From the IMG/VR virus record IMGVR_UViG_2690316076_000004: a stretch of 37,028 nucleotides of DNA; one strand, 5' to 3'. The stretch is from a virus. Lineage: Duplodnaviria; Heunggongvirae; Uroviricota; Caudoviricetes. Below the pieces are notes generated by a model, which was not told where the DNA came from, did no database searches, and saw nothing but the letters and a program-made list of their open reading frames with translations. How positions within the stretch are numbered: the stretch's first letter is position 1; each line of letters opens with the position of its first letter. Below are positions 286 to 29,184 of the stretch, piece by piece. Position numbers and translations under genes: made by a program.

Positions 286-672
286 ATGTTCAATATCATG
301 ATTCGTAAATTTGGTGAGATGACTTTCGAGAAAGCTGGTGTTGCGCGTACAGAAGAAGAAGCAATGGCCTTAGTTCTGGTAGCACTGAGATCATCACCTG
401 AGATTATCGACGCTGAATATGTTGCGGCTGAGGGTGAGATTAAAGAGATTAAAGCGGTAGCTAAGGAATTAGGTGTTAAAGGTTTCCGTAAGCTGAAACT
501 ATCCCGCGAGACTTATGTCATTGGACAGCAAGGACAATACCTAGATGAGAATAGCGCGATTGTCCTACTGAATAAGATCACCCGCTATGGTTTCCAGATT
601 GAGCAATATAAAACGTGTTTCGAATTATACGAAAAAGGTTTGCTGGATACTCTGACCATCGTTCGCGCTTAA
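286..672 (+). CDS. hypothetical protein
   Basis: 128-aa ORF with AAGG RBS upstream; followed by a hairpin/T-tract. Confidence 0.55.
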   Translation: MFNIMIRKFGEMTFEKAGVARTEEEAMALVLVALRSSPEIIDAEYVAAEGEIKEIKAVAKELGVKGFRKLKLSRETYVIGQQGQYLDENSAIVLLNKITRYGFQIEQYKTCFELYEKGLLDTLTIVRA

Positions 673-22882: not shown

Positions 22883-22913
22883 ATACAAAAAAGCCCCACC
22901 GTTAGGCAGGGCT
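22883..22913 (-). terminator. intrinsic terminator downstream of capsid gene
   Basis: minus-strand AGCCCUGCC-UAAC-GGUGGGGCU followed by UUUUUUGU. Confidence 0.65.
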
Positions 22914-23050
22914 AATTATTATTTTGCTTTAGTCTTACGTTCTTTTTTAACTGTGGCTTTCGCCGTAACCTCTTGAACTTCTTCTTCCTGAGATGGAATC
23001 AGATTTTCTTCCCCCAAATCGGGGGAAGGTTCAGAAGGTTCTACGTTAGT

Positions 23051-25054
23051 TCATTCAGAGACGTGAAGAACTTTCAGAGCTTCCGGCTGGGTAACTACAT
23101 AATCCAGATCTACCCAGATACGCGGAACGATCGCGCCCTGTGCTCTGTAGGTTGAATCGTCCAGATCTAGCTCAAGACCGCCCCATTCACCGATGGTAAT
23201 AGCGGAGAAGTCACCCAGAACGATGTGGTCTACCGGAATAACACCAGAAGTAACTACTTCGTAACCAGCCAGTTTACCGTTTTCGATGATATAACCGGAA
23301 ACGCCGTTATCTTTCAGGGTAGATTCCAGTTCAGCAGCAGTTGCACCGCTCATCGCAAACTTGATCGCCTGAGCAGGAACGCCAGCGTCGGTCAGTTTAG
23401 CGATTTCTTTCAGGAAGTCTTTGTAAGAGAAAGCAGCTTTCTTCTCAACACGGCTTGCATCAACCAGTTGTTTAATCACACCAGCCGGACCACGAGCATT
23501 ATCTTTATCAGACAGAATCAGTTGTTCCAGTTTGATGCGAACAGCCTGGTTAATGTGATCAGTGATCAGGGTAGCGATGCCCGGAACGGTTTTCAGAGAC
23601 TGACGGCTGATCGGGTTGCCACCAGCAAAAGTTTTCGGAGCCATTTTCACGTTTGCAAATTCTGCTTTACCTTCCGGTGCAGCACCGTTTTCATCAACGA
23701 AGCCGAAAGATTCAACGCTGGAAGCGGTCATTTTAGGAATAGCGGTCGGCGAAGTCAGACCAGACAGGACTTTCACACCAAGACGACCCAGAACGGATTC
23801 CGGTAACAGCATCGCTACATAGGAATCATTCAGCAGTTTTTCGTCGGTTACAGCTTCCAGAGTAGTTTTGGTGTTACCATCAGCAGCAGCACGCATAGCA
23901 GCAGTCGGAACGAATACAGAGCCACCACGAGCAGCACGACCACGCTGCATTGCAGCACCAGCAGCCATAGCAGAAAACTCGGCTTCGTTAGCACCCAGAG
24001 CAGCACCATCTACCAGAGAGCGAATTACGTTGTTCAGGTCAAAAGTTTTTTCCATTTTAGAGTCCTTAATTTGTTCGTTATTACGTTGAGCATTGGTAAT
24101 GTTATTTAGTGCCTTAGTGCGGAATGCTTCCGGCGTCATTTCTTTATTTGCCAATGCGCGTTTCAATTCTTCGTCGTCAATATTTAGTTCCCGCGCGATC
24201 TCGCGGATTTCTAATTCGTCTTCTTCGGAACGTTCAGCCACTTCCTCGATTTCTTCTTCTTCAACCGGAGCAGCTTCACGTTCTTCTTTTATTTCTTCTG
24301 TTTCCCGAACAGTTGAACTATCATCATCAACACTTTCAGGATGTTCAGCGTCTTTTCCGTCTTCGAGATTTTCATTTTCTTCATTCTCTTCAGCTTGGCG
24401 CTCTTGAGTTTCTTCAACTTCCGGTTCTTTATTTTCTTCTACCGGAGTTTCTTCAACCTGAGCGACTTCTTTTTCTTCGTCTTTAACTTGTTCGATTTGT
24501 TCTTTAGTCATATCGCGTTTAGCCTCCAAATTAACTGTGATAGTATTTAGAGAGCGATTTAAACCGACCGAATCGTCAGCAGGAACTGTCACAAATGAAA
24601 TTTCAAAGGGTGCCCACTTAGTAACAATCAATTGTCCTTTAGCGTAATCGATGTGATACTCTTTAATGTCATAGCCGACCGATATTTTTTCCATCGTACC
24701 TTCAATGACTTTATTACGAATATCATTAGCCAAAGTCCCATGCTTAGAGAATTTAACCAGAGCACGGCCTACGTTATCCGCATCGATTCGAGCGTTACAG
24801 ACAACACCAATGTGATTATCGAAATTATGATTGAACAGCAACGGAGCGTTATTATTCAGGCGAGACAGATCAACCGCTTCCGGTGTATGTACCAGAATTT
24901 CATCTAATACCACCATTTCTTGATTTTGCTCATCCCAGAATTGGCGCTGGTAAGGCTGGGTACTGGAGAAAGCAATTTCAAATTCGTATTGATCGTTATG
25001 CCCTTCGTTAATAACTCCACCGTAACCGTTAAGATCGCGGCGAAATTTAAGCAT
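23051..25054 (-). CDS. fused prohead protease - scaffold-like acidic linker - HK97-fold major capsid protein
   Basis: N-terminal ~200 aa with prohead-protease-like His/Ser motifs, central Glu-rich coiled region, C-terminal ~330 aa capsid-like; AAAGGTGA RBS. Confidence 0.8.
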   Translation of the reverse strand: MLKFRRDLNGYGGVINEGHNDQYEFEIAFSSTQPYQRQFWDEQNQEMVVLDEILVHTPEAVDLSRLNNNAPLLFNHNFDNHIGVVCNARIDADNVGRALVKFSKHGTLANDIRNKVIEGTMEKISVGYDIKEYHIDYAKGQLIVTKWAPFEISFVTVPADDSVGLNRSLNTITVNLEAKRDMTKEQIEQVKDEEKEVAQVEETPVEENKEPEVEETQERQAEENEENENLEDGKDAEHPESVDDDSSTVRETEEIKEEREAAPVEEEEIEEVAERSEEDELEIREIARELNIDDEELKRALANKEMTPEAFRTKALNNITNAQRNNEQIKDSKMEKTFDLNNVIRSLVDGAALGANEAEFSAMAAGAAMQRGRAARGGSVFVPTAAMRAAADGNTKTTLEAVTDEKLLNDSYVAMLLPESVLGRLGVKVLSGLTSPTAIPKMTASSVESFGFVDENGAAPEGKAEFANVKMAPKTFAGGNPISRQSLKTVPGIATLITDHINQAVRIKLEQLILSDKDNARGPAGVIKQLVDASRVEKKAAFSYKDFLKEIAKLTDAGVPAQAIKFAMSGATAAELESTLKDNGVSGYIIENGKLAGYEVVTSGVIPVDHIVLGDFSAITIGEWGGLELDLDDSTYRAQGAIVPRIWVDLDYVVTQPEALKVLHVSE

Positions 25055-25096
25055 TTAATCACCTTTAATTAATTGGGGGCATTGCGCCCCCGTTGG

Positions 25097-26611
25097 TTAT
25101 TGGGGATCGGTTTGAGAAGGGTTATCCTTGCTCTCACCATCAACGATAATATTTAGTGCGCTCTTTTCGGCTTGAATCTCTGAGAATACTTTTTCAGGAT
25201 CATCACCACGTTCTAATATAACGGCAGTACGTGATTTAAGTCCTTTATCAATTAAAGCAATCTCGGCGTTTACGTCTTTAATAGGATCGACGGATTCAAA
25301 ACGCGGACGAATAATAGTAGTGTTGTCGATAATATGCGGAATTGCAGTAATACGAATCGGAACAATACCACGCGCGGAATAATGGCGTAGATATGCTTCG
25401 AAAATTGGCAATACCACGGTTTCAATCAATTTGTTTTGCAGTGCTTTAACACGGTTACGCTGAGTTAATTCACCAAAACGCGCGGCTGAGTAGTTAATCT
25501 GGGAAGTGTCACCAGTCAAGCCCTGTTTAAACACGCCAAGACCCATCGCTATATGGGTGAACATGCCATCGTTGAAGCTGATAAAGTCATCACCGTTTTG
25601 CGTCGCCTGAATACTCTTGATCGTTGCCCCTTCCGGCAATTCCTGAATAGTACCAGGTGCAAAATCCTGTACTACTTCCGGCGCTTGATATTGTTCATCC
25701 TCTTCACCAGTATCAAAATCGTCACCAGAATCTTTCGGACGTTCAATAAAGCCCATAGAGCTAGCTGCAATACGTTTCTGGATGATCGCGGTTTCGCGGA
25801 ACGCTTCTTGATGAGCAATATCCTTAATCACTGGCAGGAAGTCAGTCACACCACGTAAACTTTCCGCGCACAGTGGCTGGTAGTAGTGGCACACCTGAGA
25901 AGCATCTACGCGATAATTTTCGCCAGTGTAGGTCTGAGTCAGTAGATTGATTTTTCTAAACCAGTATGCTACAGGGCGCATTGTTTCTACGTCATACTCA
26001 ATCCCTTGAAAGATCGCGCGGTCTTTGCTTATTTCACGACTAAGCGACCAGTCGCACCTATCAGCAGACAGAATAGAAACTTGTAACTCGTTGTTTTCTT
26101 TGGTTAAAACGATGAAGCATTCTCCACCCTGAACACGTTCAGATTCTGCCATTGCCAGCATTTCACGGAAGTTAAAGCGACCGTTGCGAGAGAAGCGTTT
26201 AGCACTCTGCGCCCACTTCCAGAAAGCATTCTCGATCTGCTTATTCAGTGCGGTGTCAAGTTTGCCATTTGATTTAACGATTGATGGTTTCGGATCAAGC
26301 CCCGTACCAACAACTTGGTCAACGATATACTGCTTGTATCGCTTGCCTACAGCATTGTTTATAGCCAGAGTACGACCCTGATCATAAAGGCGCTTACCGT
26401 TCGATTTGAGAGCCTTATTGAACGTTCCGGTGATAGTATCTTGTTGAAGCTGTCCATCAATTCGATCACCGACTAAGCCCAAAGAACGCTTAGACAAATC
26501 TTTCTGGAATTTTTCTACTTGTTTGTCGATAAAGATTTTTTGTTGTTGCTGGCGGTGATTAGTTTTAACTGGAGTTTCTACCGCCTTTTTGCGTCGAAAA
26601 AGATTAAACAT
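25097..26611 (-). CDS. portal protein, lambda gpB-like
   Basis: IAMGLGV...YSAARF segment resembles remembered gpB (IAAGLGVSYEQL...YSTAR); 504 aa; between W-like and capsid genes. Confidence 0.85.
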   Translation of the reverse strand: MFNLFRRKKAVETPVKTNHRQQQQKIFIDKQVEKFQKDLSKRSLGLVGDRIDGQLQQDTITGTFNKALKSNGKRLYDQGRTLAINNAVGKRYKQYIVDQVVGTGLDPKPSIVKSNGKLDTALNKQIENAFWKWAQSAKRFSRNGRFNFREMLAMAESERVQGGECFIVLTKENNELQVSILSADRCDWSLSREISKDRAIFQGIEYDVETMRPVAYWFRKINLLTQTYTGENYRVDASQVCHYYQPLCAESLRGVTDFLPVIKDIAHQEAFRETAIIQKRIAASSMGFIERPKDSGDDFDTGEEDEQYQAPEVVQDFAPGTIQELPEGATIKSIQATQNGDDFISFNDGMFTHIAMGLGVFKQGLTGDTSQINYSAARFGELTQRNRVKALQNKLIETVVLPIFEAYLRHYSARGIVPIRITAIPHIIDNTTIIRPRFESVDPIKDVNAEIALIDKGLKSRTAVILERGDDPEKVFSEIQAEKSALNIIVDGESKDNPSQTDPQ

Positions 26612-27191: not shown

Positions 27192-29099
27192 TTAGAACGA
27201 TGTTACCCAGCTACGGCCTCTATTTGGGCGTCTGGCGATGTTTTGACGTTGCGGTCGTGTGATTGGCTTAGTTTCTTCTATTTGCTCGTCAGATTGCGAT
27301 TTAGGAGCTTCTACGGATTCTTCGACAACACGGTTTAAGCTGTCTTTCATTGCAATGAGTTTATCCCATGACATTTTTGAAAGAACGTAGCGAGAAGCAG
27401 CATAGCTATAAACCAGACAGTCGAGAGCCTCGTTTCGGGTACTACCTGGATTTTTCACCCAACGCACGCCAGTAGTAGTACGCTTGATGGATTCACTCAA
27501 AAGCTGATCGAGATAATCATCAGGAACGGTTTCTGATATTTCTAAGCCAATATGAGGATTATCTTTCAGGTTTCTAACCAGCATTTCACGAACAGCGGAT
27601 TTCCCAACGTTAACACCCAGCATAAGCAATTCATGACCACCTGTACGGGTAGGTTTAACCGGAATCACTGGAGCATTACCAGATGAACTACCTTTGATAG
27701 CGTGTAGGTTCTTCCACTTGCCGCAAATACGGTATCCGGCTTGAGTGAATCGACCGTTCGATGTATCAAGGAAACTGGCGAGCATTGGTACACGTTCACC
27801 ATTAACGTTATAGAATTTGGTTTTCTTGAAGTTAACCAGACGATCCCAAACAGGTGATTCATATCGTTCACAGTTATGATCGTAAAAGCTGCGGTGATCC
27901 AGAATGTAAACCTTATCTTTCGCTACACCTAAGATGGTAGATTCTGCGCGGTCCAATTGCTGGTCAATTCCTGAGCACAAGAAAATCACGTCATCAGGGA
28001 TATTCTCGATAGAAACATCTGTTTTGAGTTGTTCCAGTTCATTTGCTTCTACTGCCGTGTCCTGATCGTCGTATACCTTGCCTAACACGGTGTTATAAAA
28101 TGATTGTAAATCAAAGGATTGCCACGCATGGCTAAAATCAACAACACAAGCGCGGATCGTGCTGAAAGGTGAATACAGACGGCTAATCCAGAATCCAGCT
28201 ACTTCACTTTCTCTCGTTACTCGCCATTCACCAGCAGCCACCGCCCTGATCCGCTCTCCTTCTGTCCATGCGTTCTTACAGTGGGGGCAAATATAACGAG
28301 CGGTATCAGGATCGGGTAAGTTCTTACCATCGATGTTACGCCATTCAAATTGAACGTTTTCCCACTCGATCACCTGGTGTTCCCCGCAATGAGGACACGG
28401 AACAAAAAACATACGCATATCGCTTGATAACCATTGCTGGTTAATGCTTCCGAGCTTACTGGTCGGGGTGCTGGATACGACTAATCGACCTTCATCGCCA
28501 AAGGTAGTTAAACGGTTAGCAGCCAGTGCCACCGGATCACCTTCTTCTGAGGCTGTAGCAGCATCGATTTCGTCAAGTAATCCAACCTTTGCGGTCTTAC
28601 CGCGTAGGGTTGATGGACTGGTAAGCGATACCATGTAAAGGAAGTGATTCGTTTTTAGCTGTAGCTGGTTATTGTTGTTAACCGCATTGCGATCATTCTT
28701 GTCTGTAACAACGTCTTTTAATGCATCACATGCTTCGATAGACGGTCGGATCTTACCAGCGAGATATTGAGACATTTCTTTAGCGGTTGATTGTCCGATA
28801 ATCATATTGCATGGATCGTTAGCCATCTGGTTAAACAGGATACCGTTCAGGATGGTAGTCTTTCCGATCTGTGCACTGGTCATCAGGACATACTTTTTCT
28901 TGTTCTCAAGGAAAGGTGCATCAATCATGCCTTTTTGGAATGACAACAATTTAACTTTATCCCCAGCTTGAGGACCATCTACCAGCACCATATTCGCTTC
29001 GCACCATTCAGACGGAAGGAGTTTAGGCGGTGGAGTGATATATTTTGCGGCATTTTTAAGAATCTTTTTTAATTTGGCCTTGTTCGAAATCAGTTTCAT
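27192..29099 (-). CDS. terminase large subunit, lambda gpA-like
   Basis: [26 protein letters not shown] (Walker A-like), [21 protein letters not shown] all mirror remembered gpA motifs; ATG at 29099 with GAGGG RBS preferred over track start 29174. Confidence 0.93.
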
Positions 29100-29142
29100 G
29101 TAATTACCCTCATTACGAAATATGAAGGTATTTATTAAATTG

Positions 29143-29170
29143 TTGATATTTTGATAAATACGGGTATTAA
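29143..29170 (+). promoter_or_regulatory. candidate sigma70-type promoter in divergent terL/HTH-gene intergenic region
   Basis: TTGATA (29143-29148), 16-nt spacer, TATTAA (29165-29170), about 15 nt upstream of the 29185 ATG. Confidence 0.35.
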
Positions 29171-29184
29171 TCAAAGGGGGTTGT

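Follow-up and report, generated by a model that had tools for sequence, protein, structure and literature searches.

Does a single reading frame of an E. coli prophage encode both the prohead protease and the major capsid protein of a phage, and is one polypeptide all that such a frame would yield? The question is raised by an open reading frame (ORF) in a 37,028-nucleotide stretch of phage DNA, here called the window, which the original prediction described as a fusion of a protease-like domain, a scaffold-like linker and an HK97-fold capsid domain, maturing by its own proteolysis. The positions of the features discussed are given in Table 1.

The fusion gene and its neighbourhood

The ORF reads from ATG to TGA on the minus strand, which the original prediction had left unspecified, and encodes a protein of 73.4 kDa with a pI of 4.6. 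The element that carries it is a siphovirus-like prophage in an E. coli chromosome, whose head module has the order gpA-type terminase, W-like protein, lambda-type portal and fusion gene. The portal gene (25097..26611) is the upstream neighbour and an FII-like head-tail gene lies on the other flank. A hairpin in the gap between portal and fusion gene lacks a T-run on the coding strand; in HK97 a putative terminator is annotated at the same portal/protease junction. No protease and no separate scaffold protein were matched in the head module or in the other scanned ORFs of the window.

Table 1. Features of the fusion gene and its flanks (coordinates are positions in the window).
Feature	Coordinates	Strand	Evidence
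GC-rich hairpin GGGGGCGCAATGCCCCC between portal gene and fusion gene	25074..25092	minus	sequence
Main-start Shine-Dalgarno AAGGTGAT, AGG core 7 nt before ATG	25058..25065	minus	upstream 60 nt read
Complete fusion ORF, 667 codons + TGA	23051..25054	minus	ORF reading, Pfam, PHROG, identical NCBI protein
Prohead protease domain, residues 21-165, S78/HK97 type, assemblin fold	24560..24994	minus	
His76 codon, predicted catalytic His	24827..24829	minus	aligns with HK97 gp4 His65 (hhalign)
Ser125 codon, predicted catalytic Ser	24680..24682	minus	aligns with HK97 gp4 Ser114 (hhalign)
Acidic spacer, residues 176-300, length varies between relatives	24155..24529	minus	composition, alignment, AlphaFold2
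Internal Shine-Dalgarno-like GGAGG, 11 nt upstream of Met182 codon	24523..24527	minus	anti-SD duplex -9.3 kcal/mol
ATG of Met182, candidate nested in-frame start	24509..24511	minus	ATG and SD statistics, Met conservation
Conserved helical region, residues 277-391, scaffold/delta-domain-like	23882..24226	minus	alignment, AlphaFold2
Arg388 codon, predicted maturation cleavage R388/A389	23891..23893	minus	conservation, HK97 analogy
HK97-fold capsid domain, residues 398-667	23054..23863	minus	Pfam, TIGR01554, PDB 8gta match, Foldseek
In-frame open extension, 43 codons after TGA-A stop, candidate read-through tail	22922..23050	minus	
Intrinsic-terminator-like hairpin, 9-bp stem + T-run, directly after extension	22892..22913	minus	

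Domain composition of the protein

In the domain-level profile search both ends of the protein exceeded their Pfam cut-offs: Peptidase_S78 (PF04586) matched residues 40-162 with 43.1 bits (cut-off 21) and Phage_capsid (PF05065) residues 411-663 with 90.3 bits (cut-off 24.2). Pfam, PHROG and the invariant residues agree on one gene in which a prohead protease, an acidic spacer and a capsid domain of the HK97 fold are fused, as had been predicted.

The N-terminal domain is by its sequence a genuine HK97-type (S78) prohead protease with predicted activity. Its His76 and Ser125 align with the catalytic His65 and Ser114 of HK97 gp4, and among 113 representatives at 50% identity no residue of the N-terminal domain is invariant other than these two and Glu151. 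Literature searches on the two HK97 residues yielded nothing usable. Foldseek placed the protease domain in the assemblin or T4 gp21-like fold with weak E-values (0.01-0.3), and a PDB sequence search with this domain alone returned only chance matches to SATB1.

The capsid domain also exceeded the TIGR01554 cut-off (69.2 bits against 27.5), and its sequence matches PDB 8gta with an E-value of 4e-24. In Foldseek the same structure was matched at E 2e-18 and the HK97, SaPI1, GTA and D3 capsids at E 1e-13 to 1e-10, with target-normalised TM scores of 0.6-0.7.

Between the two domains lie two segments of different character. Residues 176-300 contain 43% Asp+Glu, with a net charge of -38 and a pI of 4.05. 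AlphaFold2, run on an alignment built from family cluster representatives, predicted residues 196-271 to be disordered (pLDDT about 40) and the region 277-391, which is conserved across the family, to form six helices (pLDDT 80-97). The linker had been described as highly acidic and coiled over about residues 190-320. The acidity is borne out; the acidic segment appears not to be coiled, since it has no heptad pattern and residues 196-271 are predicted to be disordered, and the range given merges the disordered spacer with the start of the conserved helical region. As a candidate, a coiled-coil linker was rejected on the basis of hydrophobic residues at only 2-3 of 8 heptad a/d positions, of prolines and of the pLDDT of about 40. 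The region 277-391 itself gave no coiled-coil signal and no fold match. From the alignment and the structure model, the scaffold-like part is more likely this helical region than the acidic linker.

Two explanations would deprive the fusion of its meaning. One is that a missed stop or a frameshift, by sequencing or assembly error, has joined adjacent protease and capsid genes, which are indeed separate in HK97 and most relatives. A check for such errors found no stop or frameshift parting two genes, and the population data refute the explanation: an identical 667-aa protein is present in NCBI, about 160 E. coli/Shigella variants all have an ORF of 652-672 aa, and the same unbroken ORF is found at 33 IMG/VR loci and in relatives of about 25% identity from unrelated hosts. 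The 5426 complete E. coli genomes include 49 with the gene; 44 complete chromosomes have 80% or more of its length, unbroken and annotated by RefSeq as one CDS, and the invariant residues of protease and capsid occur together in 113 of 113 aligned representatives. The other is that the N-terminal domain is a degenerate, dead protease fold serving only as extra scaffold, with no cleavage or with cleavage by a host protease or another phage protease. Such a reading could appeal to the score against the HK97 proheadase equivalog TIGR01543 (36.2 bits, under the cut-off of 59) and to the low identity to HK97 gp4, for which hhalign against that single sequence gave a probability of only 39%. It is nonetheless very improbable, given the invariance of His76, Ser125 and Glu151, the absence of any other protease or scaffold match in the head module or the scanned ORFs of the window, and the virion capsid chain of the related phage R4C, which is without the N-terminal 361 residues.

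Known fusion relatives

The original prediction set the fusion apart from most lambda/HK97-like phages, which encode protease and capsid separately. It is too common to count as a discovery: the architecture is already known in a large family named in NCBIfam, in PHROGs and in papers (PMC8601537, PMC9671004, PMC9753647). The protein matches PHROG 617 ('major head protein') with an E-value of 3.9e-91 over residues 23-665 and profile positions 26-623 of 626; phrog_4523 bears the name 'major head and protease protein'. The NCBIfam model NF045541, 'prohead protease/major capsid protein fusion protein', was matched with 136 bits, which misses its cut-off of 525, and only over residues 22-351 in the N-terminal half. 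As the scores against both TIGR01543 and NF045541 are under their cut-offs, the gene belongs to a divergent subfamily.

The family search returned 6701 clusters at E<=1e-3 and 422 at E<=1e-30, and among the 150 best clusters 149 have a fusion length of 560-900 aa. At least 564 IMG/VR loci encode a relative of the protein. Both domains are present in at least 113 clusters at 50% identity, a call which for the 113 representatives rests on the invariant protease and capsid columns of their alignment. Relatives are detected at the protein level only: by megablast the gene matched none of 50,697 phage records. A homologue search with an eight-phage profile returned almost only E. coli near-duplicates.

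Named fusion relatives include Dinoroseobacter phage R4C (ORF006), RcCronus, phiHAP-1, VP882, the Xanthomonas phages Murka and FoX and Pseudomonas phage PPpW-3, and the SEA-PHAGES term for such genes is 'major capsid and protease fusion protein'. They have in common with the gene described here the S78 protease with its invariant His and Ser, a variable linker, the conserved helical region and the HK97-fold capsid in one ORF, as well as a gpA terminase, a W-like protein and a lambda-type portal nearby. Its identity is 23-28% with six of the seven named phages in the alignment, 40% with DCP80 and 43-45% with the closest clusters beyond the E. coli clade, and its acidic spacer is much longer than in the known fusion phages aligned. 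A protease and a capsid protein in one ORF are also found in Lactococcus phage c2 and in the ClpP(S14)-Mu gpT fusions of Paracoccus prophages (PMC6536676); these combine an unrelated protease family (ClpP) with a different capsid family (Mu gpT).

Proposed maturation of the capsid protein

The predicted cleavage site lies at the Arg of the motif P-x-(D/E)-(V/I)-(L/M/Q)-R, with the N-arm motif GG.LV following some 10 residues later, and the equivalent of Arg388 is Arg in 107 of 113 representatives. In HK97, whose capsid protein is cleaved at K103/S104, a basic residue lies likewise about 10 residues before the N-arm motif. The AlphaFold2 model has low pLDDT at residues 394-407, near the predicted site. 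Cleavage between R388 and A389 is predicted to leave a mature capsid protein of 279 aa and 29.5 kDa.

Evidence from a virion comes from phage R4C, whose capsid has been contrasted with the cross-linked capsid of HK97 (PMC10276861). Its deposited virion capsid chain (PDB 8GTA) corresponds to exactly residues 362-629 (268 residues) of the 629-aa fusion ORF and begins 10 residues after the Arg388 equivalent, although the chain may show only the ordered residues and not the true N-terminus. The counterpart of the helical region is missing from it. A chain of residues 362-629 only speaks for removal of the N-terminal part in maturation.

On the proposed mechanism, the C-terminal HK97-fold domain would build the procapsid shell with the N-terminal 388 residues facing inwards. 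The helical region 277-391 would act as the delta (scaffold) domain does in HK97, with the disordered acidic stretch as a spacer. The protease (His76/Ser125), concentrated in the shell, would then cut the subunits at or near Arg388/Ala389, and the N-terminal parts would be degraded to leave the mature protein of about 29.5 kDa. We give a probability of about 0.8 to the reading that the gene is a member of the known family, with S78 protease, removable scaffold and HK97-fold capsid, and matures in this way; within it, the scaffold function and the precise point of cleavage are inferred.

HK97 itself offers a comparison for the single parts. The protease family and the catalytic residues are common to both, and the scaffold (delta domain) is fused to the capsid N-terminus in gp5 as it is here (PMC10275583). 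The difference is that HK97 encodes its protease, which has a C-terminal targeting tail, in a gene apart from the capsid gene, whereas here it is part of the same reading frame.

A candidate nested start at Met182

In nested protease/scaffold genes, namely lambda C/Nu3, herpesvirus UL26/UL26.5 and HFTV1 gp17/gp17.5, in-frame initiation after the protease gives rise to an abundant protease-less assembly protein sharing the C-terminus (bioRxiv 10.64898/2026.09.13.751334; PMC11565193), and for HFTV1 the nested start is documented by ribosome profiling (bioRxiv 10.64898/2026.09.13.751334). The signals for an internal start that characterise lambda C/Nu3-type systems are present here too, read from the sequence alone. 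Met182 is conserved in 159 of 160 E. coli-clade proteins, with Val in the single exception, and the GAG/GGG variation in this clade preserves the purine run of the internal GGAGG; the spacing of this motif to the ATG in the window is long. Throughout the family, an in-frame ATG is found 5-60 codons past the protease motif in 52 of 54 clusters (60% identity). The median anti-SD duplex energy at these ATGs is -5.9 kcal/mol, compared to -2.6 at 584 other internal ATGs (Mann-Whitney p 4e-14). The SD-likeness is partly due to an amino-acid composition rich in Glu, Gly, Lys and Arg; it was significant when positions were permuted inside the linker (Fisher p 4e-6) and gave a moderate signal on synonymous-codon shuffling (Fisher p 0.004). 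RNA structure at the nested ATG is within the weakest 9% of gene windows (KS p 1.5e-15) and is weak also when compared to linker windows (p 2.5e-6). Synonymous diversity among 33 E. coli-clade genes is uninformative on an internal ribosome-binding site, since it is low over all codons 161-280. No usable account of an internal start in such fusion genes came out of the literature searches.

These signals lead us to favour, with some reserve, the reading that translation also starts at Met182. The predicted product (residues 182-667, 486 aa, 52.8 kDa) would be a scaffold-capsid protein without protease, the equivalent of HK97 gp5 with its delta domain. Because the internal ATG and its ribosome-binding motif are conserved, many subunits are perhaps protease-free and cleaved in trans within the procapsid. 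The gene would be nested in the manner of lambda C/Nu3 or herpesvirus UL26/UL26.5, its protease dose depending on the relative use of the two starts, with cleavage mainly in trans. Of the autoproteolytic, self-contained maturation that had been proposed, the removal of the N-terminal part is consistent with the R4C chain, while the self-contained part is at odds with the conserved internal start signals and is probably too simple.

A single product may still account for the data: all subunits would be the full 73-kDa chain from the first ATG, matured purely by self-cleavage, and the internal ATG with its SD would be a remnant of an ancestral protease/capsid gene boundary or a by-product of the Glu/Lys-rich linker. 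The strong SD at the main start, the annotation of one CDS in RefSeq and in all phage records, the moderate result of the synonymous shuffle and the phage Murka, which alone among the eight phages first examined has no SD-like motif at its first post-protease ATG, are all compatible with this. So is P2 gpO, reportedly a single full-length protease-scaffold protein according to a citation in bioRxiv 10.64898/2026.09.13.751334. Against it stands the fact that 52 of 54 clusters retain the ATG, SD complementarity and weak RNA structure at this boundary between domains, down to about 25% protein identity and in a linker not conserved elsewhere. Space inside the procapsid points the same way. With a T=7 shell and a radius of 21 nm assumed, 415 full-length subunits would bring, as a rough figure, about 18 MDa into the interior and fill about 57% of it, compared to about 9.7 MDa and 30% for the internal-start product. 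We regard the single product as a real possibility at less than even odds, and lean towards initiation at Met182 in addition to the first ATG.

Meaning of a possible nested start

The fusion as such adds nothing new: it is curated in NCBIfam and PHROGs and named in annotations, and the exact protein is in NCBI. A protease on every subunit would make for a very crowded procapsid interior, which a conserved internal start would relieve. If the nested start is true, the nested protease/scaffold strategy extends to genes with the capsid protein inside the nest; in lambda, herpesvirus and the archaeal virus HFTV1 the shared part is a free scaffold, whereas here it would be scaffold and capsid protein together. 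The annotation would also change from one CDS with one product to one with two or more.

A wider reading, which we put forward only tentatively, is that one frame yields three to four species, namely the full-length protein, the Met182 product and, in this E. coli clade, UGA read-through forms of these with a C-terminal tail of 28-45 residues, the nested start being family-wide. If this were true, translational recoding alone would set the stoichiometry of protease, scaffold, shell and surface tail, and the nested start would be an undescribed family-wide feature of hundreds of protease-capsid fusion genes.

The stop codon and the downstream extension

The E. coli clade is alone among the fusion family in having a TGA-A stop with a conserved in-frame extension; within the clade both the stop and the extension after it are conserved. 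The candidate read-through junction is LHVSE-X-TNVEPSEPSPDLGEENLIPSQ, where X is the UGA position and would most likely be Trp.

Genomic context and conservation of the fusion gene

The 667-codon fusion ORF lies in a head module whose genes are all on the minus strand. The remainder of the window contains a tape-measure gene, two large tail-fibre genes and a large serine recombinase, and from this head and tail gene set and the recombinase the window is recognised as a siphovirus-like prophage with a GC content of about 41%. An identical protein is present in NCBI as "phage major capsid protein, HK97 family [Escherichia coli]", a protein homologue search gave about 160 variants from E. coli/Shigella, 652-672 aa long, a chromosomal copy occurs in 49 of the 5426 complete E. 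coli genomes, and RefSeq annotates the gene as a single CDS. Given this agreement a frameshift or missed stop as the origin of the ORF is excluded, and the original reading as a single gene is confirmed. Two decayed copies were seen: in the IMG/VR locus L121 the ORF ends at 393 codons, and in the complete E. coli genome NZ_OW848980.1 (match H52) IS903B is inserted within the gene.

Features of the window and segments of the AlphaFold2 model of the fusion protein
Feature	Position	Strand	Remarks
Large terminase, gpA-type	27192..29174	-	head module
W-like head-tail joining protein, 165 aa		-	head module
Portal, lambda-family	25097..26611	-	head module
GC-rich hairpin GGGGGCGCAATGCCCCC	25074-25092		42-nt portal/fusion gene gap
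Fusion ORF	23051..25054	-	ATG-to-TGA, 667 codons
Glu151 codon	24602-24604	-	motif W-x-P-x-E-I-S
In-frame extension, 43 codons, TNVEPSEPSPDLGEENLIPSQEEEVQEVTAKATVKKERKTKAK	22922-23053 incl. stop	-	open from TGA-A to TAATAA
Intrinsic terminator	22892-22913	-	after TAATAA
FII-like attachment protein and major tail protein		-	same module as fusion ORF
Tail-fibre gene, very large, 1137 aa	17830-21243	-
256-aa ORF	11045-11815	-	tail module; homing-endonuclease families, phrog_314, E 8e-32
Tail-fibre gene, very large, 1248 aa	6833-10579	-
Model segment	residues 21-165		confident beta-rich domain
Model segment	residues 169-182		junction, low confidence
Model segment	residues 196-271		predicted disordered, pLDDT about 40
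Model segment	residues 277-391		six confident helices
Model segment	residues 394-407		flexible stretch
Model segment	residues ~410-667		confident HK97 fold

The protease-capsid architecture represents a family that is already known, curated and frequent, as evident from curated models, database counts and published work, and the fusion as originally described is thus not new. The protein is matched along its whole length by PHROG 617 (E 4e-91), PHROG 4523 bears the label "major head and protease protein", and the curated NCBIfam model NF045541 is named "prohead protease/major capsid protein fusion protein". The latter matches the N-terminal half with a score well under its cut-off, so our protein belongs to another subfamily. 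By tblastn the full-length architecture was found in phages of Rhodobacter, Dinoroseobacter, Halomonas, Vibrio, Xanthomonas, Pseudomonas, Achromobacter, Acinetobacter and Synechococcus, two of which carry the explicit labels "major capsid protein and protease" and "and peptidase U35". HMMER, run exhaustively against 1.84 billion cluster representatives, gave 6701 clusters at E<=1e-3 and 422 at E<=1e-30; 149 of the best 150 are 560-900 aa long, and the invariant residues of both protease and capsid are present in all 113 aligned representatives. IMG/VR contains at least 564 loci with a relative. Fused capsid-protease genes have been mentioned previously (PMC8601537; PMC9671004; PMC9753647), as have analogous ClpP-gpT fusions and phage c2 (PMC6536676).

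The closest phage record (locus L001; PQ671644.1, Escherichia phage DCP80, 1-15765) has 43% identity. DCP80 is a 141-kb genome classed in the Straboviridae/Tevenvirinae, whose first ~16 kb hold a lambda-like terminase-portal-fusion-capsid module with nearly all genes labelled hypothetical; the record looks like a chimeric assembly or a misclassification.

Domains and processing

Both enzymatic and structural domains of the original prediction were recovered by Pfam above the gathering score, Peptidase_S78 at residues 40-162 and Phage_capsid at residues 411-663, the latter with a confident HK97 fold in the AlphaFold2 model built from the alignment of the 113 representatives. In profile comparison His65 and Ser114, the catalytic residues of HK97 gp4, align with His76 and Ser125. 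Only His76, Ser125, Glu151 and Gly614 are invariant across the representatives (50% identity). In the protease domain Glu151 thus joins His76 and Ser125 as a third invariant position, and His56 is invariant only in the eight phage proteins; either of the two may complete a catalytic triad. The linker, described originally as acidic and coiled, is acidic (43% Asp plus Glu in residues 176-300, net charge -38), but these residues have no heptad pattern, are largely predicted to be disordered and differ in length from relative to relative. The conserved and helical residues 277-391 are, on the model, the scaffold-like part.

Among solved structures the nearest is that of the roseophage R4C virion capsid (PDB 8GTA; PMC10276861). 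The R4C capsid gene vBDshSR4C_006 encodes 629 residues and the deposited chain of 268 residues is exactly 362-629. The mature T=7 shell thus lacks the protease, linker and helical region, or at any rate does not show them in ordered form. Ten residues ahead of the chain start is an Arg kept in 107 of the 113 representatives, in the motif P-x-(D/E)-(V/I)-(L/M/Q)-R; its equivalent here is Arg388, followed by a low-confidence stretch. HK97 gp5 is cleaved after Lys103, which in its sequence is nine residues before the equivalent N-arm motif. From the conserved Arg and this analogy we predict cleavage at Arg388|Ala389, which would give a mature capsid protein of 279 aa and 29.5 kDa.

Candidate internal start at Met182

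The interest of the gene rests on a predicted nested start and on the in-frame extension at its 3' end. Among the eight phage genes initially examined, seven have their first in-frame ATG beyond the protease motif at a distance of 14-36 codons, in otherwise unconserved sequence, with GAGG, GGAGG or AAGGA 5-11 nt upstream. The counterpart here is Met182 (context ttGGAGGctaaacgcgatATG), where the disordered junction ends. We put the probability that translation also initiates there at roughly 0.6.

For statistics, 80 IMG/VR loci plus the phages were grouped at 60% identity into 54 clusters, and 52 of these have an in-frame ATG 5-60 codons from the protease motif. The median anti-SD duplex energy is -5.9 kcal/mol at this ATG versus -2.6 at 584 internal ATGs elsewhere in these genes (Mann-Whitney p 4e-14), and complementarity also exceeds that of codon positions drawn at random from the linker (Fisher p 4e-6, KS p 2e-11). 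When synonymous codons are shuffled with the protein fixed only a moderate signal remains (Fisher p 0.004), a weak point of the case; the choice of amino acids and the choice of codons therefore each contribute to keeping the SD-like motif. The RNA from -25 to +20 is within the least structured 9% of the gene's windows (KS p 1.5e-15), and its structure is also weaker than that of the linker's other windows (p 2.5e-6). As far as sequence can indicate, ATG, SD complementarity and weak RNA structure are what characterises a genuine start site. Met182 is present in 159 of 160 E. coli-clade proteins (Val in the remaining one), and a Glu/Gly polymorphism (GAG/GGG) in this clade leaves the purine run intact. 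Two further weak points are the SD-to-ATG spacing at Met182, which at 11 nt is long, and the case of Murka, where the first ATG that follows the protease domain lacks an SD-like motif.

Across 33 genes of the E. coli clade, codons 161-280 (24215-24574) show almost no synonymous diversity (0.00-0.04), with 0.18-0.24 in the flanks and mostly about 0.1-0.2 in the capsid domain. The block spans internal start and acidic spacer, so this population-level test gives no support specific to Met182; the low diversity could reflect a recombination mosaic or an RNA-level constraint.

Initiation at Met182 would yield residues 182-667 (52.8 kDa), an HK97-gp5-like "scaffold plus capsid" protein, and the full-length product would add the protease. 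Such an arrangement would mirror lambda C/Nu3, HSV-1 UL26/UL26.5 and gp17/gp17.5 of the archaeal virus HFTV1, the last shown by ribosome profiling (bioRxiv 10.64898/2026.09.13.751334; also PMC11565193). In a rough crowding estimate assuming 415 subunits, T=7 and a 21-nm interior radius, an all-full-length procapsid would enclose ~18 MDa (~57% of the interior) and an all-internal-start one ~9.7 MDa (30%); a mixed population fits these modelled values. Of the "self-contained autoproteolysis" originally proposed, removal of the N-terminal part is supported by the R4C chain, but "self-contained" probably hides a two-product design with cleavage in trans.

In-frame extension downstream of the stop codon

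The stop is TGA followed by A, after which frame 0 is open for 43 more codons. All 33 genes of the E. coli clade (27 unique sequences) stop at TGA-A, and past it frame 0 is open in 27/27 and frames 1 and 2 are closed in 27/27. All indels are multiples of three (48, 3, 3 and 6 nt), a conserved basic motif ends the tail, and none of the 27 has an in-frame ATG within the extension. RefSeq annotates nothing over it; in the wider family the stop is mostly TAA and extension lengths are random. In sequence terms this looks like a candidate programmed UGA read-through, which would give a minor capsid subunit with a C-terminal extension. The alternative is a tiny ORF initiating at an in-frame TTG with a poor SD.

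Other features of the window

The hairpin between portal and fusion gene has no T-run on the coding strand; it may be an attenuator or an RNA-stability element. At the corresponding portal/protease junction of HK97 a putative terminator is annotated. The 1137-aa tail-fibre gene is in an unusual position, immediately following the major tail protein gene and before the tape-measure region, and the C-terminal part of its product, from ~residue 667, matches long-tail-fibre distal-subunit families.
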